A stretch of DNA of 64,000 nt from a virus (lineage: Duplodnaviria; Heunggongvirae; Uroviricota; Caudoviricetes): the IMG/VR virus record IMGVR_UViG_3300026122_000001. The stretch is one strand, 5' to 3'. The notes beneath the pieces were generated by a model that was given only the letters and a program-made list of their open reading frames with translations, had not been told where the DNA came from and ran no database searches. Of this stretch, positions 438 through 31,341 are shown one piece after another. Position numbers and translations under genes: made by a program. The first letter of the stretch is position 1. Each line of letters opens with the position of its first letter.

Positions 438-995
438 TTACTGCCCCTCATGCAGGTTGTCGCGTATCTCGTCTGGGGCGTCCATTGACACGCCATTGCG
501 AGAATCAGCCATGTGGTTCGGATTGCAACACAACGGGCCGCAACAAATCTGGGTGACGGGCCATTTCACTTTGGACAACTCATAGGCAACCTCATGGGCC
601 TTGTAGGTCCACTTGCGCCACCGGAAGAGGCCGTCCCCGTCCTGGTCAACTTCGCCAGCCCACAGCCAACAGTCCGTATCGGACCCCTTGCGGACACGGG
701 CCCAGAAGGAAGCCTTCTCACCGGGGCTCAATCGCATCTCGTAGGCCCGGACCGCAGCATCCTCGGTCACATACGTATTCTCTGCTTCGTAGAACTTCGT
801 TATGGGTCCCTTGGTAGCGATCCACGTATTGGGTATTTCAGTGAACCAGAAAGCTCCCCACCAAGACAGATTCTCACCCGCGACGATGAGCCGCTCAATT
901 GATCGGTCTGGGTGCAAATAATACACCACCATGCCGGGTTCGATTGGCACGTCTTGGTGTAGACTGCCGTGTTCCTGTTGCCGCCAACAATTCAT
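438..995 (-). CDS. HNH homing-endonuclease-like protein
   Basis: C-terminal 'CCGPLCCNPNHM' HNH motif preceded by a 'DCWLWAG...KAHEVAYEL' block typical of phage HNH_3 endonucleases. Overlaps the downstream gene by 4 nt. Confidence 0.7.
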   Translation of the reverse strand: MNCWRQQEHGSLHQDVPIEPGMVVYYLHPDRSIERLIVAGENLSWWGAFWFTEIPNTWIATKGPITKFYEAENTYVTEDAAVRAYEMRLSPGEKASFWARVRKGSDTDCWLWAGEVDQDGDGLFRWRKWTYKAHEVAYELSKVKWPVTQICCGPLCCNPNHMADSRNGVSMDAPDEIRDNLHEGQ

Positions 996-1918
996 GTGGC
1001 CAGTGCCTTTCCTAGCCAGTAAGGCCGATTGGTCTCGCGGCCCTCTTGAAAACTTGAGGCTGGGTTAGGGTCAGCACCATGCTGACCACATGCGGGGCAT
1101 AACCACCCGTGCCCGCCGGTGTCGACTTCCCTGTCACAATGCCAACATACTGCTACGCAGTTCGCTGGTCGCTCGTAGCCTGATGCTACGTCCGGCTGGC
1201 TGCTTGGGTTGACTTGATCCCAAATGTTGGCGATCTCGCTGTATGTCGGAAGTACCTCTGGGCTGACTTGGAAGTTGCCGTTGTTGCCCGTATTGTGTGG
1301 CAGCTTGTAAATGAAGGTGCCATTCCGCTCGTAGGCGTCCAGGTCCCAGGTCCAGTTCATTCCTTTGGTGTGCAACATCTCATGCAATGCGGCATGGCCC
1401 TTACCGTGCATCTCTTTCTGGGAGTACACCGAGTTGGCATACATCTGCACGGAATTACGCTTCCAATCCAGTGCGCGGGCGAGGAAGTAGTTTGCCACCT
1501 CGGACTCCGGGATGCTGAATGACCGGGCGTCAAAGTAGGCCAGTTGGGTGACGCTCATCAACCGCATGCACCTGGCAAAGTTGGCCGTCATCACCGAGGC
1601 AGCGATGCTCTCGATTTTGTTCTGGCAGTAACCGAACCATGCATCAGTCTGGAGGGTGTCGTAGTCCGTCATCACGAAGCTTGCTTCGTCACTCTGGATA
1701 TACCCCATCTTGAAGCCCTGCATGTCCGAAGCGACACCGAGTGCTGCCTGGAGCATCGACTCAATGAGCTTGCTGTCAAAGGGACGACGGAACCCCTTGG
1801 TGAACGTGTGGAACGCCCGCCCATCAATACGAACAACCACCGGTATCCGGCGGGGCAGAAACCGCCTGGCTGGCAGTTCGTAGTTCGTTTTCATACGATG
1901 CATGATCGAGTCGCTCAT
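992..1918 (-). CDS. tRNA-His guanylyltransferase (Thg1-like 3'-5' nucleotidyltransferase)
   Basis: N-terminal 'VVVRIDGRAFHTFTKGF..PFD' and 'GYIQSDEASFV' blocks match the Thg1 family (human THG1L 'VVVRLDGRNFHRF...AYGQSDEYSFVF'). C-terminal Cys/His-rich tail. Confidence 0.8.
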   Translation of the reverse strand: MSDSIMHRMKTNYELPARRFLPRRIPVVVRIDGRAFHTFTKGFRRPFDSKLIESMLQAALGVASDMQGFKMGYIQSDEASFVMTDYDTLQTDAWFGYCQNKIESIAASVMTANFARCMRLMSVTQLAYFDARSFSIPESEVANYFLARALDWKRNSVQMYANSVYSQKEMHGKGHAALHEMLHTKGMNWTWDLDAYERNGTFIYKLPHNTGNNGNFQVSPEVLPTYSEIANIWDQVNPSSQPDVASGYERPANCVAVCWHCDREVDTGGHGWLCPACGQHGADPNPASSFQEGRETNRPYWLGKALAT

Positions 1919-2456: not shown

Positions 2457-2471
2457 ATCAATCTCCTAAAG

Positions 2472-2544
2472 CTCCTGGGGGAGGACTTGAACCTCCAACC
2501 ACCTGATTAACAGTCAGGCGCTCTGCCAATTGAGCTACCCAGGA
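2472..2544 (-). tRNA. tRNA-Asn (anticodon GTT)
   Basis: Reverse complement folds as a 73-nt cloverleaf: acceptor TCCTGGG/CCCAGGA, D-arm GCTC-AATTGGCA-GAGC, anticodon arm CCTGA-CTGTTAA-TCAGG, T-arm GGAGG-TTCAAGT-CCTCC. Confidence 0.8.
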
Positions 2545-3594: not shown

Positions 3595-4431
3595 TCATAG
3601 CAGCGTTGCTCCCTTGTGCTGCCACGAAAAGGCGAGCTTGCCCGTGGGAAAATAGATCAGTTGCCGTTGCTGATTCGGGTCAGTTGTCTCTGTCAGGCAG
3701 TTTGTCATCGCGACATTTTGCCCAAGGTAATCGTAGACCCGCGCGCCATATGGCAACCGCAGCAACTCCACTGCACCCTCTTCTTGCAGCGTAGTCTCTA
3801 GCAGCCGCAGGCCGAGGAAGTTGGCCTTGATCCATTCGGTATCCCCACCGAGTTCTCGCATGGTCACTTGGTCCACCGAGTCCTCGTGGGCACACTCATC
3901 CAGCATGTTGACCATATTCTCTGCCGACACACCGGGGCCGCCATTATCGGGGTTGAAGGCCGTCTGGGTGGCAATCACCGATAGCCGGGTGGACAAGCCG
4001 ATCTCCGACAGTTCCCTGGTCAAGGTAAACGTGTCTGGAATGTTGGCTGCCATGATCTCTTTGTTCACCGACGGGTCCAAGCTGCACACCGACAGCGCCA
4101 CCCTGGACAGGCCAGCTTCATACAACTCCTTGGCGTAGCTGAGATCAGCCGCCAATCGCATGCCGTTGGTCTGAAGGGTAATGATCGGGAACCCAGCATC
4201 ATGGAGGCGTTGGGTAATCAGCCCCAAACCTGTGCGGTCCAGGGTCGGTTCCCCAACACCGGTGATGATGACTTCATCGAATCCCTTGGCAAGGCGGATC
4301 GCCGTCTCCAGACGCTTGTAGTTATAGGAGACGCCACGACCCTTGTTGCAGGTAATCCTGGAGACACAGAACTTGCAACCGGCATCACAAGCTTTGTCCC
4401 CGACGACCACACTGAATGTTTCAAACTTCAT
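3595..4431 (-). CDS. radical SAM domain protein
   Basis: 'CDAGCKFC' (CxxxCxxC) cluster near the N-terminus and a 'GVGEPTLD' glycine-rich SAM motif. Its stop overlaps the start of the vWA gene. Confidence 0.75.
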   Translation of the reverse strand: MKFETFSVVVGDKACDAGCKFCVSRITCNKGRGVSYNYKRLETAIRLAKGFDEVIITGVGEPTLDRTGLGLITQRLHDAGFPIITLQTNGMRLAADLSYAKELYEAGLSRVALSVCSLDPSVNKEIMAANIPDTFTLTRELSEIGLSTRLSVIATQTAFNPDNGGPGVSAENMVNMLDECAHEDSVDQVTMRELGGDTEWIKANFLGLRLLETTLQEEGAVELLRLPYGARVYDYLGQNVAMTNCLTETTDPNQQRQLIYFPTGKLAFSWQHKGATLL

Positions 4432-5192
4432 TACTTCGAGTCTTTCTCAATGTGCTTGACCGCCGCGACGGCTGCCATTTTGTTACCGCACCGAAGCTGT
4501 GAGACTCCGGCACTCATACCCTTGAACGAACTGCGGGTTCCTTCCATCGAATCCTGATAGGTCGCTGCCAGGTCGGTATCCAGCCCGTAAGTGCGGGCTG
4601 CCAGCACCGCATCTTGGTTGGCGGCCGTGAACACAAATTCCCATTGGTAGACATCTCGTTGATGTTCAACCTTTTGCTTGACAAGCGTGGCTGTGTATTC
4701 GCGGCTGTCGTTTTCATCGCCGTCCGTCATAATGGCGATGATGACCTTGTTGGGTCGCTCTGCCTGTGGGGTGTCACTCAAACGGCGACCCAGACTGTCG
4801 ACGGTACTGCCAATCGCGTCCAGCAAAGCTGTCAGTCCCTGGGTGCAGTAATTGGCAACCGATAGGGGCGGCACCGACTGAATAGGTACACAATCAAGCA
4901 GGGTTCTTTGGCTCTTCGTAGACGAAAACTGGACCAAGGTGACGTTGCAGTCCCCGGGCTGGTTCTTCTGGTCGTCTATCAATTCGTTGAAGCCCGCAAT
5001 GACTTCGCCCTTGACGCCGCGCATGGAGGTGGAGGCGTCCAGAATGATGACCAGTTCCGTGAGATCAGGATTGGTATGCCGACCAGGGCTGAGTTCAGGC
5101 GTAGGGCCGGGCTCGAACACGGGTTGAGGATAATGTGGCTTGCTAGGCATACGAGGGATACGGCCTGCGTTGGGTCGTGTGGGGTCAATCAT
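4431..5192 (-). CDS. von Willebrand factor A (vWA) domain protein
   Basis: 'LVIILDASTSMRG' MIDAS-type DxSxS motif and a later 'IIAIMTDGDEND' block. The annotated ORF extends upstream to 5285, but that extension overlaps tRNA-Thr. Start placed at the internal Met (MIDPTR). Confidence 0.65.
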   Translation of the reverse strand: MIDPTRPNAGRIPRMPSKPHYPQPVFEPGPTPELSPGRHTNPDLTELVIILDASTSMRGVKGEVIAGFNELIDDQKNQPGDCNVTLVQFSSTKSQRTLLDCVPIQSVPPLSVANYCTQGLTALLDAIGSTVDSLGRRLSDTPQAERPNKVIIAIMTDGDENDSREYTATLVKQKVEHQRDVYQWEFVFTAANQDAVLAARTYGLDTDLAATYQDSMEGTRSSFKGMSAGVSQLRCGNKMAAVAAVKHIEKDSK

Positions 5193-5227
5193 TCTGTCTC
5201 TCCTGGGTAGGTAACAAACAACAAAAG

Positions 5228-5300
5228 AGCCGCCAGTGGGAGTCGAACCCACGACATGTTGATTACAAATCAACTGCTCTGCCAACTGAGCTACAGCGGC
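5228..5300 (-). tRNA. tRNA-Thr (anticodon TGT)
   Basis: Reverse complement folds as a 73-nt cloverleaf: acceptor GCCGCTG/TGGCGGC (2 GU pairs), D-arm GCTC-AGTTGGCA-GAGC, anticodon arm GTTGA-TTTGTAA-TCAAC, T-arm GTGGG-TTCGACT-CCCAC. Confidence 0.75.
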
Positions 5301-7577: not shown

Positions 7578-7811
7578 TTATTTCTTCTCCTGGGTCCGTC
7601 GAATCACCCATCGCCCAGTGTCGGGGTCCCTGACAACCTCCCATTGGCCAAACTCGCCATCGATTTGGAAGTCACGGAAATCGATACTATACGAGCGGGG
7701 CGGCGGGTCCGGCCGCAAATGGATGCCCAGGATGGCACCGCTTAGCAGACCAAGGGGCAGGGCAATAAGAACGGTTGTCAGAATCATGGTTCGTGTGGCT
7801 TTAAGCATCAA
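7578..7811 (-). CDS. small membrane protein
   Basis: 77-aa ORF with an N-terminal TM segment (MILTTVLIALPLGLLSGAILGI). Confidence 0.4.
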   Translation of the reverse strand: MMLKATRTMILTTVLIALPLGLLSGAILGIHLRPDPPPRSYSIDFRDFQIDGEFGQWEVVRDPDTGRWVIRRTQEKK

Positions 7812-8383
7812 ACAAGTCTCCTCCGCATAATAGAACGTAGCATGTCATCAAAGTGGTAGCGTTCAACTTCCCGGACGTTGAGTATCATCCAGTGAAGCTG
7901 TTTGGATGTGTAATGCTCCCACCAGTCGGCATCTTCTGGCCATGGGTCATCTGGCTCTGGGTCCAGCAAACCAAGCAGGTTGGCCAACCGAGCATAATGG
8001 TGGTCGAAACTTTCCCGGAACAAAACGTATTCGCAGTGATGGGCTTGCACAAATGTCCGCGAACCGGACCATTGCAGCAAAGCCTCATCCAGTGATTTGT
8101 CCCTGTAAAACATGTTGTGCCACCGCAGCAATGCAATGGCCGGATTGCAAACAACTGTGAAAAACTTGTACTCTGATCTGATGTCCTCTGTCAGTACGCA
8201 CCGAGTCACCAGACTGTTGTAGCTTTCGCCCGGGGAGCCGACGACACGCGACCCCGGGAGGTATGCCCATTGCATCCGAAACTTTAGCACGGGCACTAGG
8301 GGCTCGTCCAGAAACACCAGCTTCAAACGATCATTGATTATCGCCATGTCGTCGCTCGTAGGATTGGGGAGGCTGGTAACCAC
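7808..8383 (-). CDS. hypothetical protein
   Basis: 191-aa ORF; 4-nt overlap with the upstream gene. Confidence 0.45.
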   Translation of the reverse strand: MVTSLPNPTSDDMAIINDRLKLVFLDEPLVPVLKFRMQWAYLPGSRVVGSPGESYNSLVTRCVLTEDIRSEYKFFTVVCNPAIALLRWHNMFYRDKSLDEALLQWSGSRTFVQAHHCEYVLFRESFDHHYARLANLLGLLDPEPDDPWPEDADWWEHYTSKQLHWMILNVREVERYHFDDMLRSIMRRRLV

Positions 8384-8882
8384 GGGCCTTGTTGGTAATC
8401 ACAGGGATAAGATCGGGCATCCCTGTCGATTTGGCCCGGCTGATACACTCCTCTACGTCGGTCTCGATATGCTCGAATTCGACGGTCCAAGTCTGACCAT
8501 CAGGGTCGCGGCCCCAGTGGGCCAGGTTGTCACGATTCTTGCGGCACGTATTGGTGGCATCAAAGATAACCACCTTGTGGCCAGCCTCGAACAGTGCTTT
8601 GACCATAATGCGAGCCTGTGCCCACACCAAGTCTTCACAGGGCGCATAGTACCGGTGGCCATGAACGACAATCCTGATTGCGTCGGGACTCACAATCGGT
8701 GCGCCCAACGATTTTGCCAACTCTTGTGCCCGTGTAGTTTTGCCAGACCGGGCAGTCCCATCATTGCAACTAGCGTATTCATAAGTAACCAAGTTCCTCC
8801 ATTTCTTGCCCAAAGAGGTCATGCACAAGCTTATGTGCCCTCGCCTCGTGTTTGTAAAATTCCATATAGTGTGCTGGCCCAC
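8331..8882 (-). CDS. P-loop polynucleotide 5'-kinase-like protein (T4 Pnk kinase-domain-like)
   Basis: Walker A 'GTARSGKTT', then 'VVIFDATNTCRKNRDNLAHW', which resembles T4 Pnk 'VIISDTNLNPERRLAWETF'. No phosphatase domain. The start is ambiguous (alternative Met at 8822) because the 5' end overlaps the sulfotransferase gene. Confidence 0.6.
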   Translation of the reverse strand: MGQHTIWNFTNTRRGHISLCMTSLGKKWRNLVTYEYASCNDGTARSGKTTRAQELAKSLGAPIVSPDAIRIVVHGHRYYAPCEDLVWAQARIMVKALFEAGHKVVIFDATNTCRKNRDNLAHWGRDPDGQTWTVEFEHIETDVEECISRAKSTGMPDLIPVITNKARGYQPPQSYERRHGDNQ

Positions 8883-9303
8883 GCAGCCCAGTACAGTCTT
8901 TAGCAGGTAGGGTAACTGGTACTAAGCCAATACCGACCAAGACCTGATTCAACTGGGCTTCCAAGTTGGCCTCATATCGCAATACGTGAGTTGCATACAG
9001 ACTGTGCCAAAACAGTCGGCCGTCCGGAAGGAAATGTGTGTTTCTGGACCACATGCGAATGAACTCGTACAATGACAGCTTATGATTGCGACTTGTCTTG
9101 TGCCACCACGAAATCATCACATCCAGTGGGTTGCGAACAGTGGTCACCACGGTCCAGCCGGTCGGCTTTGGCACCGTCAGCCCTGTGTGGTGACTTCCCA
9201 CCATCTCGGCACCAAACTTGCCTACAAGCACATCCCTGGTAGCCACAGAGGCTGTCCGGGGGTGGGCGAGGTAGCAAAACTGTTTATCGGCGATTTCGTA
9301 CAT
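8779..9303 (-). CDS. sulfotransferase-family-like protein
   Basis: 'AHPRTAS' resembles the 5'-PSB loop (PKSGTT) and 'RNPLDVMISWW' resembles the 3'-PB RNPxD motif of PAPS-dependent sulfotransferases. Confidence 0.5.
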   Translation of the reverse strand: MYEIADKQFCYLAHPRTASVATRDVLVGKFGAEMVGSHHTGLTVPKPTGWTVVTTVRNPLDVMISWWHKTSRNHKLSLYEFIRMWSRNTHFLPDGRLFWHSLYATHVLRYEANLEAQLNQVLVGIGLVPVTLPAKDCTGLRGPAHYMEFYKHEARAHKLVHDLFGQEMEELGYL

Positions 9304-10631
9304 CAGATGCTGACTTCGTCTAGCATGTCAATCTTGAATCGCTGGGGCCCGGCGGCATCAGTTTCCGGACGCCGCAAGCGAACAGGCAAACGCCAGGTGA
9401 CGCCGTACTTCTGGTTGACCCCATGCAACAACTGTGTGGGCTCAGTGAAACCAGAGAAAGCGTTGAAGGCATACGGGTCCGTGGCTACCCAGGCACCGTT
9501 AATCATCAACTCGCCATCCATCTCGGTGGTCGTGCCGGGTCGATGGAAATGGCCGCAACAGTAATAGCGAATCGGCGGGCCCGCCATGTGGCGATCCAGG
9601 CCCATGATCCGGCGTTGTCGACGTTCCAGCCCATACCACGGGATACCCATGTTGCTGCGAATGTCGTCGCCATGGAACACACAGAACCCCACGCCGCCAA
9701 TGTCGAGGTTGACAGAGAAGGAGTTCGGAATCGCGAAGTCCACGTTGGGTAGATCGGAACAATACATCTGGGCCGTTTTCGCGACCAGGTAATCCCAGTT
9801 GTCATGCGCACCATGGTAGTTCTTCTTCACTGACCGACGGCCGTGGTTACCAGGCACATAAACGACATTCACTTGCTTGAAGTACGGGGCCAGGTCCCGG
9901 AACATCAAAGCGTGAAGCTGGCCGATGGCCAGTGTGTTCTTGAAGATATTTCGGAAATAGGATCGTTCCACATGACCGTGAATCTCACCGCTGGTATGGT
10001 CGCCATAACAGAGGATGGTAAGGTCCGGAAAATGGAACTGCGGTGCCAGCGTATGCTGTGTCCACTTGATGACAGCATCAACATACCGCTCCGCACGGGC
10101 AACACTGACGGGAAAATTGTAGTTCTCCAGCCCGCCGACCTTCTCAGGTGTGACAACCTGATCGTGGTGACCATCGGAGATGTGCATGACCAAATGTTCG
10201 GTCACATCACCGTGCTTGCGACATCGTGGCCTCCGTCGGGAGGGCGGCAGCGGGGACATGGGGACAATGCGGTCCTCAAGCTCGTCAGCGATGGCCAAGA
10301 ACAATCCGTGCTCCTTGGCTGCGGCTTTCAAACCCTTACGGGCATCGTTGCGCTCGACACGAAGATGTTCCACATCGGCCTGCAACTCCAGTATCCTTTC
10401 GTCAGTGGGGTCATAGGATTCAGTTGGGGCCGACACCCTTTTACTGGCAAGCGTGACACCCTTATCGGCATGTGACCGCCCACATTGGATGTCCGAGACA
10501 TAGCTACGACTGATACCGTATTTCTCGGCCGCCGTTGCCTGTTTCATCCCGCCAGCCAAATCGGCCTTCAACTCGACGACTTTCTCTTCAGTCAATAGTG
10601 GGTTTGCTTTCGCCATTTGGGGAGACCTCAT
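9303..10631 (-). CDS. HTH-domain / calcineurin-like metallophosphoesterase fusion protein
   Basis: N-terminal HTH-like segment (ATAAEKYGISRSYVSDIQ), a coiled-coil, then phosphoesterase motifs 'HISDGHHDQ', 'CYGDHTSGEIHG' and 'YVPGNHG'. Confidence 0.7.
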   Translation of the reverse strand: MRSPQMAKANPLLTEEKVVELKADLAGGMKQATAAEKYGISRSYVSDIQCGRSHADKGVTLASKRVSAPTESYDPTDERILELQADVEHLRVERNDARKGLKAAAKEHGLFLAIADELEDRIVPMSPLPPSRRRPRCRKHGDVTEHLVMHISDGHHDQVVTPEKVGGLENYNFPVSVARAERYVDAVIKWTQHTLAPQFHFPDLTILCYGDHTSGEIHGHVERSYFRNIFKNTLAIGQLHALMFRDLAPYFKQVNVVYVPGNHGRRSVKKNYHGAHDNWDYLVAKTAQMYCSDLPNVDFAIPNSFSVNLDIGGVGFCVFHGDDIRSNMGIPWYGLERRQRRIMGLDRHMAGPPIRYYCCGHFHRPGTTTEMDGELMINGAWVATDPYAFNAFSGFTEPTQLLHGVNQKYGVTWRLPVRLRRPETDAAGPQRFKIDMLDEVSI

Positions 10632-10682
10632 AGGTTGAAATTATCTGACAAGTTTCATTATACCACGGAACCGGTTGTGTTG

Positions 10683-11780
10683 TCAAGCTCTATCTTGAGG
10701 GTTTTTCCGGTCATAATAGTCTGCGCTGACTACCTTCGCAATCATGCGGGCACGCATCTTTGCCGACCATTGCTCTTTAAGAGGTGTGACCACACACCCC
10801 TCACGGCCTTTGAATGGGCTGTTGATGTCGGCCGGTGAGGCCACCATTGTGGGCCCGTCACAATGAAGCATCTTGGTCTCGTCAAACGCACCCTCAAAGA
10901 GCAGGGGAACAGTCGGAACGCCATGCTTGTCCGCATAGGCCTTCACATCGGCCCAGTCCATGTACTGCATGTCACCGACGGGGCCCGCCATGATGTCAAA
11001 TAGGCGATACCCAGTTCGACCAAGGGCCCCATAGTCCATATCCTGGACCTTGCGGCCATAGATTTCGCCATAGGCCACCGCAGAGCAGCCCTCACCCATG
11101 GTACTGACAATATCTGCCAGCATGTTCTTCATGGCCCCAGTCATGGGTAACCAATACAGGGAGGCACGAGACCCTGACCGAGCGTCCGACATCGGTTTCA
11201 CGTTGGTCGTGTGTGACCCGCACATGAATTCGGGCCCCTCGTCGGTATGAATCAATCCAACCCGGCTGTTGGTCCCATGAATCTTCTCGGTGATGCGAAC
11301 CATTGTGCCTGGCGGGATCGCTCCGGGATGGGCCCGCAAATGCTTGATGCTGGTGTAGATCGGAAACAGCATGTGATCCGGCCGGGCATCGCCAGCGGTC
11401 ATTTCAATCGGCGGCTCGTACTTGACGCCATGATACATCGCGGTGACATTGGTGCCGAATGTCATGTCCCCAGCGTATCTTATCACGAAGCCAAAGGAGG
11501 CCTCGCCACGAATACGAATTGCCCCGACCCGGCATTGTGATTTCTTCTCGTCCCCGGGGTAGACAGAATGCTTCAAGTACCGCTGGGTGCCCAACGCTTC
11601 AGCTACCGATGATGGGATGAGAATGTCTGGCGGGAAGAAAACCACCGAGTCCCCAACCCGATACAAGTCCCGTTGCACAGCGAGTTGGAAACCCAAGACC
11701 TGAATCACATCCAACCGGTCAGCGTTGGGGTGCGGTTTGACTTCGTTGACTCGTTCAATGGTGATAAGCGTCTGGCTCAT
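10683..11780 (-). CDS. ATP-dependent RNA ligase with N-terminal tRNA-binding (OB/Myf-like) domain
   Basis: Nucleotidyltransferase motif I 'ITEKIHGTN' (KxHGxN) and an N-terminal 'NADRLDVIQVLGFQLAV...VVFFPPD' OB-fold-like tRNA-binding segment. This is the DraRnl/NgrRnl-type architecture. Confidence 0.7.
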   Translation of the reverse strand: MSQTLITIERVNEVKPHPNADRLDVIQVLGFQLAVQRDLYRVGDSVVFFPPDILIPSSVAEALGTQRYLKHSVYPGDEKKSQCRVGAIRIRGEASFGFVIRYAGDMTFGTNVTAMYHGVKYEPPIEMTAGDARPDHMLFPIYTSIKHLRAHPGAIPPGTMVRITEKIHGTNSRVGLIHTDEGPEFMCGSHTTNVKPMSDARSGSRASLYWLPMTGAMKNMLADIVSTMGEGCSAVAYGEIYGRKVQDMDYGALGRTGYRLFDIMAGPVGDMQYMDWADVKAYADKHGVPTVPLLFEGAFDETKMLHCDGPTMVASPADINSPFKGREGCVVTPLKEQWSAKMRARMIAKVVSADYYDRKNPQDRA

Positions 11781-13618
11781 AGTTGGGCTCCAGTGCCGAT
11801 GTTAATGGGTAAACTTGGGTGGGGCACAGGGTACTGGTTAATCAGATACTCAAAGGCCTCACAAAAGGCTAGCGGCTCCTCGGTGTTGTTGTAAATCTCT
11901 CTGCACAGGGCACAGTCGGTGATCTGGTCACTCATGCGCGTCCGGAACACCACATCATCGATCATGCGGGTAATCAGGTTCTGGTAAGACCGATAGCTGG
12001 TGGCTACCAACTCTGACATACCAAGCCGGTCGTTGGCGGCCGACGCAACTCGACTGTACCAATGATCGCCACGGAACGTCACCATGGGTTTCCGTAAATG
12101 CCAGTTGTCGATGATTGTATTGTAACCTCCGAACGGAAAAGAATCAATACCAAAGTCACCGAATTCCAACCGTTGCATATAACCGTCATAACCACCCCGA
12201 TCAGGCATCGCTATAGCGGTATTGCCAAATATCTCTTTGATGTCCGCCAGGAATGGGTTAAGCCCCTGGTAGCGGCAAACACCATTGCTTGGGAAGAACT
12301 GAACACGGCATGGGGCCTTCGCGGCACGCATGGCGTCCCGTACCGCATACAACATGGGGATGTTGTATTTGGTCGGGCCCCAGCAAGCATTGATTATCAC
12401 ATCGGTAGAAGTACGTTTTGGTTTGCGTGGGACATAGCTGGGCTTTACGGACTGGTTGCCCATACCAGGCAACAACACCAGCCGCTCAGAATAATGTCGC
12501 TGGGCACCAGGAGCCTCGACCTCAGCACCGCTGATGAAGTAGTCAATCTCTGACCCGGCCGTACTCACCGGGTGGCCAGTGGTGCTGACTTGAATGGGCG
12601 CGAAACGCTGGTTGGCCAATATCAGGGACAGGGCATTCATCCCGACATCCGGGTACAGGATGGCCGCATACGAGTTACACTGTAGGGGCTCAAGACCTTG
12701 AATCTGATCGTCTTCATCGATATGCACGAAATGCACGTTGTCAAATCCGACGGTATCGACCGCCAAGTCCCCGGCGTCTTTACCAAGATGGAACAAGTCC
12801 AGTTTGAAACGACTTCGCAAAGCAGCAACCAATGGGGCCACACTTTTGTGTACCACAGTGTTGGGTGCCCAGCGGTCTGAAATGATGGCAATCCGTGTGT
12901 CATCTGGTGTGTTATTCACCGGCACCTGTGGCCACTTGGCTTTGATACACTCATTCAGTTGGCGTTTCAGTGATGGTGCGCCATCCTCATCGGCATAGGT
13001 TGGGATGAAATGCGCATCCGTAAACTTTGTTGAATGCGGAAAACCAGGTGGTGGACCACTACGGAAATGTTCCCGCAGCCGTCGCTGAACGTGCTCGGAC
13101 GTAATACAGTTGGCAGCCAACGGGTAAGTAGTCCACCACGCAGCCTGAAGCTGGTCGCACGAGTCTGTGTATTTACAGAAATCACTCGGGCGCATTTGCC
13201 GGTATGTTCTCGGTGACATCAGCGTAAGAATCTTCGATAACTGCTGGTTGGTGCTAAACAGTCTGTCAAGCCAGACATCGGCTGTATTGAAGCTTGACAG
13301 CGCCAAGAGGTTGGCAATGATGGGATTCAATGAGACAAAATACAACTGGTCCGGTTTCTGGACATGAAACCTGGGCGACACAAAGGTGTCCAGAAAGACT
13401 TTCAGAAATTCTTCGAGATGGGTACGGGTTGCGGGCCTCATTGGGCCAAGATTGACTTGGCAATAGAAGCTAAACGCTTTGCGAATTAGCCTCATGTACT
13501 CGGGGTAATCATACCCGTTGCTGGTCAGGCATATTCTCTGCAACTCGAAGTCAGGCAGCACTCGTTGCACCAGGGACAAGTTTGTTGGTGGCTGTATTGG
13601 ATAAGTCATCAGTTTCAC
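11777..13618 (-). CDS. GT41-family glycosyltransferase (OGT / HMW1C-like catalytic domain, no TPRs)
   Basis: 'QRFAPIQVSTTGHPVSTAGSEIDYFISGAEVEAPGAQRHYSERLVLLP' aligns with human OGT '[48 protein letters not shown]'. A later block 'KPMVTFRGDHWYSRVASAANDRLGMSELVA' matches OGT '[20 protein letters not shown]'. Confidence 0.75.
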   Translation of the reverse strand: MKLMTYPIQPPTNLSLVQRVLPDFELQRICLTSNGYDYPEYMRLIRKAFSFYCQVNLGPMRPATRTHLEEFLKVFLDTFVSPRFHVQKPDQLYFVSLNPIIANLLALSSFNTADVWLDRLFSTNQQLSKILTLMSPRTYRQMRPSDFCKYTDSCDQLQAAWWTTYPLAANCITSEHVQRRLREHFRSGPPPGFPHSTKFTDAHFIPTYADEDGAPSLKRQLNECIKAKWPQVPVNNTPDDTRIAIISDRWAPNTVVHKSVAPLVAALRSRFKLDLFHLGKDAGDLAVDTVGFDNVHFVHIDEDDQIQGLEPLQCNSYAAILYPDVGMNALSLILANQRFAPIQVSTTGHPVSTAGSEIDYFISGAEVEAPGAQRHYSERLVLLPGMGNQSVKPSYVPRKPKRTSTDVIINACWGPTKYNIPMLYAVRDAMRAAKAPCRVQFFPSNGVCRYQGLNPFLADIKEIFGNTAIAMPDRGGYDGYMQRLEFGDFGIDSFPFGGYNTIIDNWHLRKPMVTFRGDHWYSRVASAANDRLGMSELVATSYRSYQNLITRMIDDVVFRTRMSDQITDCALCREIYNNTEEPLAFCEAFEYLINQYPVPHPSLPINIGTGAQL

Positions 13619-14880
13619 CTCAGGTATTCTTGTAGTTTGCCCTCGTTGACGTACAGTATTAGGTCACACGGGATACCCATGCTTGCAATCTGCGAAGCAA
13701 TGTCGCGCACCCGCCATGCCGAGGTGACCACAATGATGTCCACCGGTGAGTCTTTTAGCACCCCGGGGTCCTGAATCGCCTGGCCTGTGCCCGGGACATG
13801 TTTCCCAACAAGCTCGGGATTTGAATCCACCACCAGCGGGAACTTGACCCTATTCACCCCATAGAAGTTAAAGAACGAGGCGCTCTTACCAATTCCGCCC
13901 CAAAAGGCCAGCTTGCGCCCACAGTCCCGGTAGTTATGGAGATCGGCTGAAACTGCTAGAATTTGGTTATCAGCTTGGTCCCCAAACTGTTTGGCACGCT
14001 GGTTGTGCGATTCGCATGGACGCAACTTACACAGGGCTGTCAACACGCCCTTATGGTAGGCAGTCCCAGCCCGAATGATATGAAAATGTTTTTGTAACAA
14101 GTGTTCCAAGCTTTGAGTTGTAAACTGCGAGACATGCTCATAGATCATATCCTGCAACCGAAGTTTGTCAAGAATCAAATCACCATTCGGAACTTCGACA
14201 AACAGGTATGGTTGGATGCCCTCCAGGTGACAGGCGTAAACCAACTCATCCAAAAAGACAGCAGGCTGGGGGAAATGTTCGAGCACATGCCGCATGATAA
14301 TCAACCCAGGCATATGGGCCGGAATGTCCCATTCTGGGTTTGCGTAGTCGAGCTTGTAAACGAAATCTCGGTCAACGCACTGCGAGTCATGGGTCCGCCA
14401 GTATTCCAAGCTGGGATCAATCCCAACGTACTTCATGGTGTTCCAGTTGCTGTACAGCGACATCTCATTGATGAAAGAGCCGTCCCCGCAACCGATTTCC
14501 ATAACGGTGTCCCCAGGCTCCAGCGGTACAAACTCAGTTAGCTCGTAGGCTAGTTGCTCACAATGATTCACCCAGCCCTCGCCACGATTGTACATCTGCC
14601 AGTTGCCCACATAGTCAACCGCTTCGGGATCGAACTGTGGATTGTAGATATGGCCGCAGTCGCCGCACAAAACATGCAGCATGCCATACCTGGCCGCCGA
14701 TAAAGCTTCTTGCTCGCTAGCAGGCGGGGCAATCGTGGACAGTGGTTGATGCCCAGGGGCGAACAATGTGTATGGATTCATGCCACCACAGACAATACAA
14801 TGAGTCCTCATGCTTTTTTGCCTCCATGCCGATATGGGCGACTCTTGTTGTAGGCAAGTTTTTGTTCCAAGGCTTCGCAC
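13615..14880 (-). CDS. SAM-dependent methyltransferase, TylC3-type C-methyltransferase-like (Zn-ribbon + MTase + C-terminal domain)
   Basis: N-terminal zinc ribbon (CIVCGG...CGDCGH), methyltransferase motif I 'VMEIGCGDGSF', and a long C-terminal domain as in NDP-hexose C-methyltransferases. Confidence 0.7.
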   Translation of the reverse strand: MRSLGTKTCLQQESPISAWRQKSMRTHCIVCGGMNPYTLFAPGHQPLSTIAPPASEQEALSAARYGMLHVLCGDCGHIYNPQFDPEAVDYVGNWQMYNRGEGWVNHCEQLAYELTEFVPLEPGDTVMEIGCGDGSFINEMSLYSNWNTMKYVGIDPSLEYWRTHDSQCVDRDFVYKLDYANPEWDIPAHMPGLIIMRHVLEHFPQPAVFLDELVYACHLEGIQPYLFVEVPNGDLILDKLRLQDMIYEHVSQFTTQSLEHLLQKHFHIIRAGTAYHKGVLTALCKLRPCESHNQRAKQFGDQADNQILAVSADLHNYRDCGRKLAFWGGIGKSASFFNFYGVNRVKFPLVVDSNPELVGKHVPGTGQAIQDPGVLKDSPVDIIVVTSAWRVRDIASQIASMGIPCDLILYVNEGKLQEYLR

Positions 14881-15464
14881 ATCGGAATTTCAAACTCATA
14901 ACACACGGCCGCCGAGACAATGAACATCTTGGCGAACACCGCAGCCATGCCACGAGGGAACCCGGTGGCAGTGTCGCGAGTCAAGAATTTCTCCGGGTCC
15001 AAGCCGTTCACTCGGTACTCTTCCATGGCATAACTGATCTGGGCGATAATGACCATCAGGCCATGGGAGAGGTCCACGCCGTAGCCTGCATCTGGTTCCA
15101 TGAACTTCCAGGCTTCTTCGATCAAGTCCTCCAGCCGGGCCAACGGATGGGTTGCCGGGCCACGCCCCATGATCTCGCCTATCGCCTCCACGATTGGAAT
15201 TTGGTACCGTCCGATGGTGTCGGCAGCCCGAATCCATAGGTCGGCAAACTCAGAGGCCAATCCCTCGGGCTTCCTTGTGTCCACATCGCGTGTCAAATAG
15301 GTCTGGTATGCGGGCATACCGGTGGCAACCTCTTCCCATACCTCGGTGAGTTCGGTGACAAACAACATCAATTGTTCACCAAAGTTGCGATCCATCTGTT
15401 CCCACCAACCTTTTTCGATGGCGGTTCCGTGGGACTCTTCAATCAGTTGGGTTATGTTAATCAA
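14808..15464 (-). CDS. MazG-like nucleoside triphosphate pyrophosphohydrolase
   Basis: 'GEQLMLFVTELTEVWEE' helical EExxE-type motif and C-terminal 'KLAYNKSRPYRHGGKK', typical of phage MazG proteins. Confidence 0.65.
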   Translation of the reverse strand: MINITQLIEESHGTAIEKGWWEQMDRNFGEQLMLFVTELTEVWEEVATGMPAYQTYLTRDVDTRKPEGLASEFADLWIRAADTIGRYQIPIVEAIGEIMGRGPATHPLARLEDLIEEAWKFMEPDAGYGVDLSHGLMVIIAQISYAMEEYRVNGLDPEKFLTRDTATGFPRGMAAVFAKMFIVSAAVCYEFEIPMCEALEQKLAYNKSRPYRHGGKKA

Positions 15465-20224: not shown

Positions 20225-20692
20225 TTAGCTTTGTGGTTTTGTTGGTCGCGTAACTTTGTGGTCACGAGCGGGTCTGGTATGTTCCCGGCCTTCACCGGCT
20301 GCCAAGACACGCTGCGTGGTGTAGACTCCGAAATCTTCCGCCACCACGGACGGTTTAACTATCGTGGACCACGGGCCGCCCCGTAGTCGAATCCCGGTCC
20401 ATGTTGGAACAGGTGTGTTAGTGTAGCCAGTACAAATGGCCGTTCGACCCTTTTCATCCTGAACCACCTTGTCAACGAAGTAGGCACCCATGTGCGCAGA
20501 GGTTGCACGATCATTGACATACCGCCGGTAATGCAATGCCACAACACGCGCAATATCGCCTTGCACGCCGGACCATTTGGCCCCGGTGTTTACGTTGTAG
20601 CCTTCTACAGTTGGTAGGTCAATCAAGGTGACAAAGATGCGGGCGGTCCCCACCCTAATCACACAACCTAACTCAAGCGGCGGATCGGGCAT
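20225..20692 (-). CDS. hypothetical protein
   Basis: 155-aa ORF. Confidence 0.45.
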   Translation of the reverse strand: MPDPPLELGCVIRVGTARIFVTLIDLPTVEGYNVNTGAKWSGVQGDIARVVALHYRRYVNDRATSAHMGAYFVDKVVQDEKGRTAICTGYTNTPVPTWTGIRLRGGPWSTIVKPSVVAEDFGVYTTQRVLAAGEGREHTRPARDHKVTRPTKPQS

Positions 20693-21230
20693 CGAACACC
20701 TCCTTCAGAATATCAAATGAAAACGGTTTCAGCATACCGAGGCATTGCAAGGCATGGTCCACGCCCACATCGGTTGCTTTTCGCTTGGGCCAAATACTGT
20801 TGAGCATCTCTTCGCGGTTGCTGTGACAGTGTCCGTACAAATTCCAAGCACCCATAGCTTCGCCGGGCCATGTAACAAACGGGCAATGGCACAGTGTTAT
20901 CCGCTGTCCGTATGGGCTGATCTCCAACAGCCTGTTGCAGGTGCTAAAATGTGTGGCCGCTGAGTTCCGATCGTGGTTGCCTTGGATCAAATGTACTTCG
21001 CGGCACTCAATGCGTTGGCGGTAATGGCCCACCTTGCGTGCGCCCCAACAAAAGTCACCCAGAATGTACAAAATGTCATCCCGCCGCACACACGTATTGA
21101 TCTCGTGCAGGATACACTCGTCCATCTCGTCTATGATGTCGAATGGTCGATCACACATCTTTAGGATACCGAGATGCCCAAGATGCAGATCGGCCGTAAA
21201 CCATGTCTTCTTAGACTGTGACCGGCTCAT
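20673..21230 (-). CDS. calcineurin-like metallophosphoesterase (phage protein-phosphatase-like)
   Basis: Motifs 'FTADLHLGH', 'YILGDFC' and 'IQGNHD'. Confidence 0.7.
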   Translation of the reverse strand: MSRSQSKKTWFTADLHLGHLGILKMCDRPFDIIDEMDECILHEINTCVRRDDILYILGDFCWGARKVGHYRQRIECREVHLIQGNHDRNSAATHFSTCNRLLEISPYGQRITLCHCPFVTWPGEAMGAWNLYGHCHSNREEMLNSIWPKRKATDVGVDHALQCLGMLKPFSFDILKEVFDARSAA

Positions 21231-23184
21231 CTTCCTCTTCCTCCTCGTTCCAAATTAGCGTGCCATCCTCGCCGAGTGTCATCAGTTCGAGACGACGATT
21301 GGCAGCCAGCACGTCACGGACATGCTCGTCATACGGCAGATGGAACAGGTCTACGATCGTCGCGCCACGGTTCTCGTCCATGCCCTTACGGTGAATACGA
21401 TCCTCAGCCTGCCGTCGGGAGGCTGGGTCGAAATCGTTTGACCAAAATACCGCCATCCTGGCTTCAGTCAACGTCAAGGCCATACCACCGGACTTCGGGT
21501 GGGCAACAAACGCGACCTTGCGATTGGCCGCTGTGTCGCACCAATAATCCAGTGCCGCCACGTCTTTGATGACAATTCGTTTCTCGGTGTCGGGGTCATA
21601 CTGGTATACCACCCAGCCACGACCATCAACCCGCACCACGTCCCACTGCTTTCGCAAGCAGAGAGTTGTTACACGATCGACTGATCCAGTGAACCCAGCA
21701 AAGACCACAATCCGGCCTTGCTCTTCGTTCTCGTCCAAAAGATCGATCATCTTGTCTTCTTTTGGGCACGGAAGCTCGTGGGTGACGCGGACATGCTTCG
21801 GCACTTCTTTGCGGCCTTCGCATGTTGGACACTCAATGCGGTGCTTCTTCAGCGTTGCCACATAATCTGGGTCCATCAACTCCACGGCTTGGAACCGATG
21901 TTCCTCGTCATTCGGGTCATACCACTCGTCGATCTCACCGGTGCCCTTGCATGCCTTGCACGGTTGGGTACCCTTGACCACATCACGATACTGGAACCCA
22001 TCGCTGAGTTCACGCAGCCACGTAAGGCCGGTGATGACATTCGGTGCCGATTTCAAGATGACCTTGGCGACCGCAGCGACTTCCTTTGTCGGCGGGCACT
22101 TCTCGATACGATACTGTTTGTCCGGCAACTGGATACAATCTTTCTTGTGCAGCACGACCACCAGGCCTTTGAGCCGTTCAGCAAGATAGGCGACCTCATT
22201 ACTGCTCTTGGACCATTCGTGGTAGTCTTCGCCCTCAGCGATGGCCAGTGTCTGGTCGTGGGGCCCGTCCTCATACAGCAGCCCACATGTGGCACAACGC
22301 AACTCATCGTCCCGCCAAGCTACAACTTCTTGGTGTGTCCCACCACTCAGGTTGTTTCGTTCTTCCAAGAAAGCCAACCGCTTTTTGAAAGCGTGGTGGT
22401 TGCCCTCCTTGATGAACCCGGGGTAAGCAATCTCGGCCTGTGACCACCAGTCCATAGGTGACTTGGGTGATGGTGTACCGGACATCTCGATGACGTAACA
22501 GTCGTGTCCCCAGTCTTCGAGCATCCCTTCTGTCAAGTCGCGTGCATTCTTTGATCGCTGACTGGTCGGACCTTTCAGTAGGGAGGATTCATCAAAGACG
22601 ACACCCTGGGGTGCCTTGTCTCCGGGCGTCCAGTTCTGCATCGTCTTGACCATCTTCTCGTAGGTCATCATCAAGACTTGGACGCTAGGGTCAAGCTTCC
22701 ACTTTTTGAATTCGCGCTCGACCGCCTTGATACCTGATTTGGGCCCGACCCACCACCAAACCTTGGCTCCGGACTGCTCCATGATCTCGATGGCGGACAG
22801 TGTTTTACCAACGCCCATCTCAGCCGCGAAAATCTGGAAGTGATAGGTCAATCCAGCGTCTGCCATCAGCTTCTGATGGTCCATCAGCGGTCGCTTGTAC
22901 TCGAAGTTTTTCAGGGGCTGGTCGAACCATGCATACGGATTGCCGCCCTTCAGCAATTCCAACTGGAATCGATTGCGGCGACAGTCTTTGACCGACCACA
23001 CCTTCCGGGGCTTCTTGTCAAACCCGTGCCACTTCGCACCACGCATTGCCTTGATGTCATCCTTGGCACCAAACGGGGATTTCAGAAACTCGATGCGACC
23101 GCCTGTGTAAGCAATCGAGGCATTGGCCTTAACCCGCTTCCCCTTCTGAGTCGTGATAATTATGCTTGTATGTTCGAGTTCCAT
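21211..23184 (-). CDS. SF2 (SNF2/DEAD-like) helicase with embedded zinc-finger insert
   Basis: Motif I 'GVGKTLSAIE', motif II 'VVFDESSLLKG', C-terminal motif VI 'QAEDRIHRKG'. The middle region carries CxxC pairs (CATCG, CKACKGTGE, CPTCEGRKE). Confidence 0.75.
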   Translation of the reverse strand: MELEHTSIIITTQKGKRVKANASIAYTGGRIEFLKSPFGAKDDIKAMRGAKWHGFDKKPRKVWSVKDCRRNRFQLELLKGGNPYAWFDQPLKNFEYKRPLMDHQKLMADAGLTYHFQIFAAEMGVGKTLSAIEIMEQSGAKVWWWVGPKSGIKAVEREFKKWKLDPSVQVLMMTYEKMVKTMQNWTPGDKAPQGVVFDESSLLKGPTSQRSKNARDLTEGMLEDWGHDCYVIEMSGTPSPKSPMDWWSQAEIAYPGFIKEGNHHAFKKRLAFLEERNNLSGGTHQEVVAWRDDELRCATCGLLYEDGPHDQTLAIAEGEDYHEWSKSSNEVAYLAERLKGLVVVLHKKDCIQLPDKQYRIEKCPPTKEVAAVAKVILKSAPNVITGLTWLRELSDGFQYRDVVKGTQPCKACKGTGEIDEWYDPNDEEHRFQAVELMDPDYVATLKKHRIECPTCEGRKEVPKHVRVTHELPCPKEDKMIDLLDENEEQGRIVVFAGFTGSVDRVTTLCLRKQWDVVRVDGRGWVVYQYDPDTEKRIVIKDVAALDYWCDTAANRKVAFVAHPKSGGMALTLTEARMAVFWSNDFDPASRRQAEDRIHRKGMDENRGATIVDLFHLPYDEHVRDVLAANRRLELMTLGEDGTLIWNEEEEEDEPVTV

Positions 23185-27330: not shown

Positions 27331-27543
27331 CCGAGGGATTAAATTGTGCTTGATAACCCTCGACCAGCGGCTCGTGGCAAGTGCCGACGCCGGGTACTCG
27401 ATCCCGGCGAAGGCTGTGTCTCACTACATCGGACCGTCCTCCATGGTTAGTGTCCGCTTGTCGTTTGTTTCCTCTCGTCATTCCTTACATTCTCAATTAT
27501 ATCACACTCGGACAGGGTTGTCAAACAGAAACCTTGAATTTGG

Positions 27544-28686: not shown

Positions 28687-28758
28687 GTGGGGCATAGGGG
28701 AATTGAACCCCTGTTGCCGGGTTGAAGGCCCGGTGTCCTAACCACTAGACGAATGCTC
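28687..28758 (-). tRNA. tRNA-Glu (anticodon TTC)
   Basis: Reverse complement GGAGCATTCGTCTAGTGGTTAGGACACCGGGCCTTCAACCCGGCAACAGGGGTTCAATTCCCCTATGCCCCA. D-arm GTCTAGTGGTTAGGACACC closely matches E. coli tRNA-Glu. Anticodon arm CCGGG-CCTTCAA-CCCGG; T-arm AGGGG-TTCAATT-CCCCT. Confidence 0.8.
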
Positions 28759-29050
28759 CTGGGTCTGCTGTCACAATTCGGTACATGTGTTGAAGAATCT
28801 CTGCCTCACACCAGCTAGAAAAACTTGACAGTGTGTAATCAGCGGCTGCCATATCTACCCAAAATGTGATATACAACGGGCGACCATCCTGGCACGGCAT
28901 CATCACCTGGATCATGCGTCCGCCGGGACCATGCCTGGGTGATGGCTGCACTGTGACCGTGCCACCATACTGAGCCGCCATGGTGCGAATCCGACCCAAC
29001 CTCAGAGGCTTAAAATTCATGGCCACATGGACACTCCCGTTTACGTACAT
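28745..29050 (-). CDS. hypothetical protein (trimmed from longer ORF)
   Basis: The long ORF's N-terminus overlaps the basic zinc-ribbon gene out of frame. An internal Met (MYVNG) gives a 102-aa product. Confidence 0.3.
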   Translation of the reverse strand: MYVNGSVHVAMNFKPLRLGRIRTMAAQYGGTVTVQPSPRHGPGGRMIQVMMPCQDGRPLYITFWVDMAAADYTLSSFSSWCEAEILQHMYRIVTADPGAFV

Positions 29051-31174: not shown

Positions 31175-31239
31175 CAGTGGTCGGTTCCCGTCTCAGTGAC
31201 CAAACATCGATCGGGGCCGTTCTTCCGGGTCATAAGTTT

Positions 31240-31331
31240 GGCCCGTAGAGGAATCGAACCCCTGACTCCCCACCCACCGCCGTGTTCAACATTGGTAGGA
31301 CCAGGGTGCTTTACCACTAAGCTAACGAACC
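31240..31331 (-). tRNA. long (92-nt) tRNA-like gene, anticodon unresolved
   Basis: Reverse complement has acceptor GGTTCGT/ACGGGCC (2 GU pairs), D-arm GCTT-AGTGGTA-AAGC and T-arm AGGGG-TTCGATT-CCTCT. The 44-nt region between D- and T-arms does not fold into a clear anticodon arm by eye. Confidence 0.45.
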
Positions 31332-31341
31332 GAACCGTAAG

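Follow-up and report, generated by a model that had tools for sequence, protein, structure and literature searches.

The window analysed here, 64,000 nt of an uncultured phage of the Caudoviricetes (IMG/VR record IMGVR_UViG_3300026122_000001), carries on its minus strand a row of six tightly packed genes in which enzymes of RNA end repair stand beside transferases of sugar, sulfate and methyl groups. Mechanical calls place the six open reading frames (ORFs) at 13615-14880, 11777-13618, 10683-11780, 9303-10631, 8779-9303 and 8331-8882, and the boundaries reported in an initial annotation of this DNA, with overlaps of 1-4 nt at 13615/13618, 11777/11780 and 9303, are all present. That annotation read the six genes as a single operon and one co-translated functional unit, possibly a system of RNA repair in which the transferases mark the product, or else a pathway of macromolecule modification. 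Placing the window proteins in families by Pfam and PHROG profile searches, with NCBIfam and PDB profiles for selected families, gave the following inventory of the interval and of the genes most closely tied to it.

13615-14811, minus strand: TcaB9/TylCIII-like methyltransferase (MT), probably starting at the ATG at 14811, with the mechanical ORF extending to 14880
11777-13618, minus strand: HMW1C-like (NGT-type) GT41 glycosyltransferase, ~600 aa, Pfam Glyco_transf_41
10683-11780, minus strand: Rnl5-type RNA ligase, Pfam RNA_ligase plus PHA02142 OB domain, predicted nucleophile K166 in TEKIHGTN
10657-10686, minus strand: predicted sigma-70-type promoter, TTGACA, 18 nt, TG-n-TATAAT, 12/12 consensus positions and an extended -10
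9303-10616, minus strand: helix-turn-helix (HTH), coiled-coil and metallophosphoesterase protein; the mechanical ORF runs to 10631, the likely start is the ATG at 10616
8779-9303, minus strand: mini sulfotransferase-like protein, 174 aa, Pfam Sulfotransfer_1 at 20.2 bits, below the 22-bit cut-off
8331-8782, minus strand: Pnk-like polynucleotide 5'-kinase gene, AAA_33, phrog_505 'polynucleotide kinase', kinase domain only
7808-8347, minus strand: degenerate sulfotransferase-like paralogue, 179 aa, phosphosulfate-binding (PSB) and phosphate-binding (PB) motif residues lost, kept in the four closest phages
20673-21230, minus strand: small stand-alone metallophosphoesterase ('c15'), 185 aa, phrog_547 'phosphoesterase' (E=2e-41), Pfam Metallophos at 22.1 bits

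The family names of the initial annotation are supported by Pfam and PHROG, with the reservation that the sulfotransferase match and the Pfam metallophosphoesterase match are sub-threshold and that the kinase ORF had been misdrawn. The overlaps, which had been taken to argue for a unit, exist as well, but at 27 of the window's 47 same-strand junctions the genes overlap or stand no more than 15 nt apart, and the chain of tightly packed genes extends both ways. Two flanking genes mark its surroundings:

14808-15464, minus strand: MazG-like nucleotide pyrophosphatase, phrog_3301 and phrog_9236 'pyrophosphatase', with an ATGA-type junction to the MT that is conserved in relatives
21211-23184, minus strand: SNF2-like DNA helicase, phrog_62 'DNA helicase' (E=1e-51), Pfam SNF2-rel_dom and Helicase_C

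With starts corrected against relatives, a gap-free chain runs from at least an M28 peptidase gene (19811) through ThyX, ribonucleotide reductase (RNR), the MazG-like gene, MT and GT41 to the ligase; the MazG-like stop overlaps the MT start (ATGA at 14808-14811), so that the chain does not begin at the MT. Downstream of the kinase it continues into the 179-aa gene (7808-8347) and then a 77-aa gene. The only true gap within the six genes is the spacer between ligase and phosphoesterase (10632-10682), where the perfect promoter match lies. Two such matches occur in the 64 kb, against 0.03 expected, and in a DNA comparison with three relatives (L008, L001 and L004) neither hexamer nor the TG varies, whereas the remaining spacer has diverged. 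With a conserved sigma-70 promoter inside this gap, the six genes are predicted to span at least two transcription units, the second of which would extend past the kinase into the 179-aa and 77-aa genes; a single six-gene operon is thus contradicted both by the promoter and by the greater length of the chain at both ends. The adjacency and the stop/start overlaps most likely come from the usual dense packing of phage genes, here at a hot spot of insertion, and not from one pathway. The other perfect promoter match lies at 27496-27524 (minus strand; TTGACA-N17-TATAAT, with a TG before the -10).

Conservation of the gene order in related phages had been proposed as a check on the six-gene unit. 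Three relatives with 44-69% identity in GT41 keep the order RNR-MazG-MT-GT41-ligase-phosphoesterase-sulfotransferase-kinase-179-aa gene, with a second GT41 paralogue in two of the three and an extra gene before the kinase in two, yet this order says little about function because the whole neighbourhood is syntenic. Loci at greater distance were collected from IMG/VR by a ligase-anchored scan (80 loci, 26-74% identity) and a phosphoesterase-anchored scan (462 relatives, 80 kept), both sets being read with local hidden Markov models (HMMs) and gene clustering over 10 kb on each side. A scan of IMG/VR with the single GT41 sequence gave no match; it was the alignment-based ligase and phosphoesterase scans that succeeded. 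Neither a nucleotide search of the interval nor a tblastn search with GT41 returned any match among 50,697 phage records; in the protein database the contig of the window measures 156 kb.

The lineage so defined has a backbone of SNF2-like helicase, a variable slot A, the HTH-phosphoesterase, a second variable slot B and further core genes, with the helicase upstream of the phosphoesterase in nearly all loci, as a backbone gene at the upstream edge of the variable slot. Slot A may hold a small gene only, MT-GT41 without the ligase (~10 loci), MT-GT41(-GT41)-ligase, the permuted ligase-MT-GT41, or just the ligase; in slot B there are between one and three sulfotransferase-like genes, the kinase, or genes of other kinds. 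A further arrangement reads ligase-phosphoesterase-sulfotransferase-sulfotransferase, and on several contigs common to both scans the ligase is found ~30 kb from the phosphoesterase. Within 10 kb of the phosphoesterase, 55 of its 80 loci lack all of the other five families, and the ligase stands without MT and GT41 in most of its own 80 loci. In the phage studied here slot A contains the small phosphoesterase, the M28 peptidase, ThyX, RNR, MazG, MT, GT41 and ligase, and slot B the sulfotransferase-like gene, a frameshifted Pnk-like kinase and the degenerate sulfotransferase-like paralogue. The six genes are thus largely separated in related genomes.

Co-occurrence was tested on 39 dereplicated loci. 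MT and GT41 occur together in every case (10/10, always adjacent, p=2e-9), the kinase only with the ligase (3/3, p=0.006), and the small phosphoesterase with the ligase in five loci of eight (p=0.004) and with the kinase in 3/3; the sulfotransferase-like gene is unlinked to the others (p above 0.2). It is only the ligase-kinase-small phosphoesterase group and the MT-GT41 pair that co-occur, and the claim of one co-translated functional unit does not survive this separation. We consider it likely that the interval is a mosaic of accessory cassettes in two slots flanking a conserved HTH-phosphoesterase, in a large, widespread environmental lineage of uncultured phages. The cassettes would have accumulated at an insertion hot spot within a replication and nucleotide-metabolism module. 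In this scheme the MT and the HMW1C-like GT41 would add a hexose, which may be methylated, to a protein of the phage or the host within the cytoplasm; the Rnl5-type ligase, the Pnk-like kinase and the small phosphoesterase would heal and seal broken RNA or RNA-terminated nicks; the mini sulfotransferase-like protein, with its inactive-looking paralogue, would be a separate element; and the large HTH-phosphoesterase would be a core gene, a probable nuclease or phosphodiesterase of DNA metabolism.

Some observations weigh against a mosaic. The MT occurs with the ligase above chance (5/10 MT-positive against 3/29 MT-negative loci, p=0.016), and the MT-GT41 pair and the ligase are still neighbours after their order has been permuted (L037, L039 and L102). 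The co-occurrence tests involve few loci, make no correction for shared ancestry and cover 10 kb per side, so that genes scored as absent may lie further off. In one subclade the MT/GT41 pair might be functionally coupled to the Rnl5 ligase and the healing enzymes; such a pair could possibly glycosylate the ligase or another repair or anti-defence protein, or else modify the repaired nucleic acid, and phage-encoded cytoplasmic glycosylation tied to nucleic-acid repair would be without precedent. We regard this coupling as very unlikely.

The first association is the MT-GT41 pair. The MT comprises an N-terminal Cys4 zinc ribbon, a class-I S-adenosylmethionine (SAM) domain and a Methyltransf_14 C-terminal domain (Pfam Methyltransf_23, E=2.5e-15, and Methyltransf_14), measures 400-404 aa in relatives, and aligns over its full length with TcaB9 (3ndi; residues 23-390 with 10-387), at a weak similarity (E ~6e-6). 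It shares this architecture and full-length alignment with the nucleoside diphosphate (NDP)-sugar C-3-methyltransferases TcaB9 and TylCIII, but differs from them in its company: neither an NDP-sugar 4,6-dehydratase nor other deoxysugar genes appeared in the vicinity, and the partner is instead a protein glycosyltransferase. Among the scanned neighbours there are no sugar dehydratase, aminotransferase or nucleotidyltransferase genes, that is, no NDP-4-keto-sugar pathway, and the substrate of the MT could come from the host. Since it is always paired with a protein glycosyltransferase, the MT may methylate the transferred sugar or the protein.

The GT41 protein is of HMW1C type. A profile built from phage and bacterial homologues matches the solved HMW1C-like N-glycosyltransferases 8p0o, 3q3e and 8j30 (E ~1e-54; columns 53-567 with residues 58-599) over the N-terminal all-alpha domain and the GT-B unit, without TPR repeats; OGT and SPINDLY align with it in the C-terminal lobe only. 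The match to the NCBIfam NGTferase model (E=4e-22) reaches 78 bits against an equivalog cut-off of 1000. The protein is predicted to be a cytoplasmic protein glycosyltransferase and, being HMW1C-type, is much more likely to have a protein target than RNA; to our knowledge, all characterised GT41 members act on protein. It resembles HMW1C and ApNGT in length (~600 aa) and in a near full-length match that includes the N-terminal all-alpha domain, and differs in being phage-encoded and in having as partner a TcaB9-like MT, not an adhesin or an alpha-1,6-glucosyltransferase. Mycobacteriophage virion proteins are glycosylated by phage-encoded glycosyltransferases of other GT families, a parallel to the modification of proteins in the infected cell that is predicted here.

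Candidate targets were sought within the window. Two giant minus-strand ORFs, at 47432-55729 (2765 aa) and 58072-63978 (1968 aa), have no PHROG match and are rich in Asn, Ser and Thr, and we regard them as candidate fibre- or adhesin-like virion proteins and as possible glycosylation targets. N-X-S/T sequons, whose Asn receives a hexose from UDP-hexose in HMW1C-like N-glycosyltransferases, are not enriched in the window proteins, and the 32 and 24 sequons of the giant ORFs do not exceed compositional expectation.

Homologues of the GT41 protein number ~300, mainly ~590-aa proteins of Cyanobacteria and Planctomycetota, and the bacterial survey covered 80 GT41 loci, 79 of them genuinely bacterial. 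An orthologous MT adjoins GT41 in 10 of the 80 (E at most 1e-82), and neither ligase nor phosphoesterase homologues were found at any of the 79 genuine bacterial loci; one of these (L237) contains a weak match to the kinase HMM (E=2e-5). On a Thermoguttaceae chromosome (OY762224.2, ~1.31 Mb; L014/L180) the orthologous MT and GT41 genes overlap, with fliD and fliS immediately downstream, an arrangement that points to a flagellar glycosylation module not yet described in Planctomycetota. A GT41 homologue of Gloeobacter lies behind a 1540-aa protein and a TpsB transporter, the layout of HMW1A/B/C. The pair points to the glycosylation of proteins, be they of the phage or the host, in the cytoplasm and, in bacteria, to a possibly new module of flagellin or adhesin type. 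Bacterial proteins in which an MT domain is fused to GT41 exist (P0036), and such fusions were at one point considered as support for the pair; they were dropped, as the fused MT domain is not orthologous and the BLASTP match is confined to the SAM motif. The remaining locus of the 80, L246 (DYKV01000002.1, 63,495 bp), is labelled as an Anaerolinea sp. metagenome-assembled genome (MAG) and shows the phage arrangement MT-GT41-ligase-HTH-phosphoesterase-small phosphoesterase; it is almost certainly a contig of the present phage lineage binned into a bacterial MAG.

Glycosylated and other hypermodified bases are known in phages, and the setting of the MT directly after MazG, RNR and ThyX, with overlapping or 10-nt junctions, and of a radical-SAM gene ~4 kb downstream, would fit a pathway of DNA or nucleotide hypermodification in which a kinase like the 5-hydroxymethyldeoxyuridine (5-hmdU) DNA kinase acts with MT, GT41 and the sulfotransferase-like protein to decorate a base. 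However, ThyX, RNR and MazG adjoin the MT only in the clade of the window, and in other lineage members MT-GT41 follows the helicase or the small phosphoesterase, with RNR and ThyX at other places. The GT41 protein is HMW1C-like over its full length, N-terminal all-alpha domain included, the same pair occurs in a bacterial flagellar locus, and the kinase, which has its best matches of solved structure among the polynucleotide kinases of RNA repair, accompanies the ligase and not MT-GT41. Furthermore, ThyX is a thymidylate synthase family, and hypermodification pathways usually use a hydroxymethylase of ThyA type. Hypermodification is therefore quite improbable as an account of these genes, and protein glycosylation by an MT-GT41 cassette is the reading that we prefer.

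The second association centres on the ligase. Its profile matches NgrRnl of Naegleria gruberi (5cot) with E=6e-27 in a full-length, collinear alignment (residues 7-351 with 9-337 of 340), and the NCBIfam model RNA_lig_DRB0094 with E=4e-36 (7-356 with 4-339 of 341), at 125 bits, below the equivalog cut-off of 151. In order, an N-terminal OB domain precedes the nucleotidyltransferase domain, collinear with both DraRnl and NgrRnl, and T164, E165, K166, H168, G169, T170, R326, E327, G328 and K349 are invariant among 15 sequences at down to 27% identity. On the strength of this collinearity and of the DraRnl NCBIfam match, the sequence places the ligase as a genuine Rnl5-type member of the RNA ligase family. 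The 'tRNA-binding domain' that had been assigned to it is the signature N-terminal OB domain of Rnl5. With DraRnl of Deinococcus radiodurans and with NgrRnl it shares the OB and adenylyltransferase domains and the motif I lysine; it differs in scoring below the equivalog cut-off, and its activity is predicted from sequence. Rnl5 ligases seal 3'-OH/5'-PO4 nicks in duplexes only when the 3'-OH strand is RNA, and loss of DraRnl delays genome reassembly after irradiation (PMC5397189). The family already includes members from bacterial viruses, and the authors of that study leave the roles of Rnl5 and Rnl2 open (PMC5397189). Ligase homologues in the cultured phages CcrColossus and Manatee Spring podovirus have none of the other genes nearby.

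By co-occurrence the kinase goes with this ligase, and the initial naming of it as Pnk-like was borne out. Among solved structures its profile matches Pnkp1 best (4xrp, E=3e-11), followed by the kinase domain of CthPnkp and by T4 Pnk, and the family alignment keeps a Walker A motif GLPRSGK[ST] and an invariant D34 and R37 (D-x-x-R). Kinase relatives are 142-150 aa long (~148) and cover only positions 9-124 of the 295-position phrog_505; by this length and coverage no fused 3'-phosphatase domain was found in them, so that 3'-end healing would need a stand-alone metallophosphoesterase. In relatives the protein begins MNxxIAMMGLPRSGKTT, and its ATG shares bases with the stop codon of the sulfotransferase-like gene (ATGA, window 8779-8782). 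This ATG is present in the window too (8782-8780), but a 1-nt deletion relative to three related phages falls in the Walker A codons (CCC at 8750-8752, against CCACGG in L008). An assembly error at the CCC run was considered and rejected: two other assemblies, of a 98%-identical strain (L259 and L260), contain the same deletion, which is accordingly real. The shifted frame reads GTARSGKT and is open upstream (TTG 8792, ATG 8822), and the ORF called at 8331-8882 is an artefact in which the downstream frame was extended backwards. The kinase gene of the window may have turned into a pseudogene recently, or an alternative start may still allow its translation. The extra gene between the sulfotransferase-like gene and the kinase in some relatives (133-173 aa, cluster '26/71'; L001/L019 12996-13397, L004 14743-15264) belongs to a family that also occurs in slot A of other lineage members and has no family match.

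A triad of kinase, phosphoesterase and ligase had been recognised in the six genes. The ligase and the Pnk-like kinase stand, but the large phosphoesterase is a core gene and the small one fits the role better. The latter lies directly after the SNF2-like helicase, ~10 kb upstream and outside the six-gene interval, weakly matches the NCBIfam model 'ligase-associated DNA damage response endonuclease PdeM', and stands next to the ligase in L246 and in two distant phages, L086 and L095. We regard it as a better candidate than the large enzyme for the end-healing partner of ligase and kinase. A Thg1-like tRNA-His guanylyltransferase or 3'-5' polymerase gene is also present in the window (992-1918, minus strand; phrog_4717 E=9e-71, Pfam E=4e-26), with a gene for an HNH endonuclease after it (438-995), and in the distant phages L051 and L053 a Thg1-like gene stands immediately after the ligase, which hints at a tRNA-repair role of the ligase. 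Ligase and kinase belong to heal-and-seal families; as to the substrate, it may be tRNA or RNA-containing DNA nicks. The association of ligase, kinase and small phosphoesterase, sometimes with Thg1, provides a testable handle on the physiological role of Rnl5.

Comparison with known repair systems places the group near, and outside, the classical ones. With Pnkp/Hen1 and Pnkp1-Rnl-Hen1 it shares a Pnkp1-related kinase, a separate ATP-dependent RNA ligase and a metallophosphoesterase in one neighbourhood; it differs in that these are separate small proteins, the ligase being Rnl5-type with an N-terminal OB domain and the kinase frameshifted, and in that the locus has no Hen1, the only nearby MT being TcaB9-like and not co-inherited with ligase or kinase. 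With T4 Pnkp and its ligases Rnl1 and Rnl2 it has in common a kinase with a T4-Pnk-like Walker A (GLPRSGKSTWA in relatives) and D-x-x-R, and a phage nick-sealing ligase of the Rnl2/Rnl5 superfamily. Unlike T4 Pnkp, the phage kinase has no 3'-phosphatase domain of HAD type, and the OB domain of the ligase is N-terminal, Rnl2 having a C-terminal domain instead.

These relationships bear on the proposal that all six proteins form one tRNA repair-and-mark system, in which the transferases, in the manner of Hen1, would modify the repaired junction against recutting. An Rnl5-type ligase, a kinase with Pnkp1 from the Pnkp1-Rnl-Hen1 complex as its nearest solved relative, tRNA genes and a Thg1-like gene in the same phage, and MT-GT41-ligase-phosphoesterase contiguous in ~10 diverged loci, with MT and ligase co-occurring above chance (p=0.016) and adjacent even when permuted, are what such a system would lead one to expect. 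The transferases are less accommodating. MT-GT41 is found without ligase or kinase in ~10 phage loci and without the ligase in the 79 bacterial ones, and the ligase in turn mostly stands without MT-GT41; the MT is TcaB9-like and not Hen1-like, with half of its occurrences lacking the ligase and its 10 bacterial orthologues accompanied by GT41 only, so that it does not fill the Hen1 'marking' slot. GT41 corresponds over its full length to protein glycosyltransferases of HMW1C type, and the sulfotransferase-like gene shows no linkage to the rest. As for the healing enzymes, the large phosphoesterase belongs to the lineage core and has a promoter to itself, and the kinase gene of the window carries a frameshift. 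An RNA repair system with sugar, sulfate or methyl marking of its product fails on comparative genomics and is not a new system to be claimed here; we judge it extremely unlikely. In the literature on phages with GT41, HMW1C or a sulfotransferase and RNA ligase we found no earlier description.

The large HTH-phosphoesterase is itself one of the core genes of the lineage and has a promoter of its own; it is not an enzyme dedicated to end healing. It matches phrog_284 'exonuclease' (E=2e-35) and a Pfam metallophosphoesterase model at 17 bits, below the cut-off. Sequence-level PDB searches, with the single sequence and with a profile, matched only the HTH, and in a structure predicted from database homologues the nuclease-like neighbours are DP1, SbcD and Mre11; the protein is probably a nuclease or phosphodiesterase of the replication and recombination module, acting in DNA metabolism. 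Homologues in phiCD211, Dagobah and Bacteroides phages have none of the other genes nearby.

This resemblance, the position of the genes in a replication module beside the SNF2-like helicase, and the weak PdeM match of the small phosphoesterase raise the possibility that the ligase, the kinase and both phosphoesterases serve replication and repair of the phage DNA, acting on nicks with RNA 3' ends, primers or damaged ends, with the transferases as unrelated passengers. The nick substrate of Rnl5 and the phenotype of DraRnl loss are in keeping with such a role (PMC5397189). The Thg1-like gene, present in the window and next to the ligase in two distant phages, speaks against it, as does the origin of the closest solved relative of the kinase, an RNA repair complex. 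Moreover, pairs of Pnk and Rnl in phages are a classic answer to anticodon nucleases. An exclusive DNA role is on balance unlikely, and we favour an accessory healing-and-sealing cassette, distinct from the core phosphoesterase, within the mosaic.

The sulfotransferase-like protein belongs to a large family of its own. A PAPS-type 5'-PSB-like loop AHPRTAS, an HH pair and a 3'-PB-like RNPxDVxxS (TVRNPxDVxxSWW in the window protein) are kept across 41 diverse members, with P15, H39, R57 and E111 invariant; 10 of the 41 match Sulfotransfer_1, _2 or _3 and 11 match phrog_3347 'galactose-3-O-sulfotransferase', consistently though weakly and below threshold. The PDB matches of its profile are weak and to sulfotransferases only; a weak match of the family to Phi92_gp146 (21vq_D) was also noted. 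An AF2 model of the protein was unusable (pLDDT 34). The family comprises 1779 representative clusters (50% identity, E<=1e-3), nearly all stand-alone proteins of 170-190 aa, and related phages have tandem arrays of up to three copies (L119). The 179-aa protein downstream of the kinase is a degenerate, inactive-looking paralogue: it has no Pfam or PHROG match, hhalign pairs it with the sulfotransferase-like family over 146 columns (probability 85%, E=6e-6), and some ORFs of L099 and L100 match both HMMs.

All components of the interval come from known families, and the presence of Rnl5 ligases in bacterial viruses is no novelty. Possibly new are the HMW1C-type glycosyltransferase of phages with its constant TcaB9-like MT partner, a pair for which the literature on phages with GT41 or HMW1C gave no earlier description, the association of ligase, kinase and small phosphoesterase, and the large mini-sulfotransferase-like family, whose ~1800 clusters (50% identity) of ~175-aa proteins are an uncharacterised family and a lead for further work. 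PADLOC defence models returned nothing meaningful at the locus.

Around the six ORFs lie genes for the class II RNR, ThyX, the MazG-like pyrophosphatase, the SNF2-like helicase, a primase and the Thg1-like protein, the giant ORFs, and five tRNAs:

2471-2544, minus strand: tRNA-Asn (GTT)
5227-5300, minus strand: tRNA-Thr (TGT)
28687-28759, minus strand: tRNA-Glu (TTC)
31239-31331, minus strand: tRNA-Arg (CCT), a long 93-nt prediction
31341-31415, minus strand: tRNA-Met (CAT)

The radical-SAM protein (278 aa) is encoded together with a VWA-domain protein (284 aa, phrog_7371) at 3595-5285 on the minus strand, the two genes overlapping by 1 nt, and the pair is kept in the related phages L008, L019 and L001. 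The tRNA-Thr gene overlaps the 5' end of the mechanical VWA ORF.

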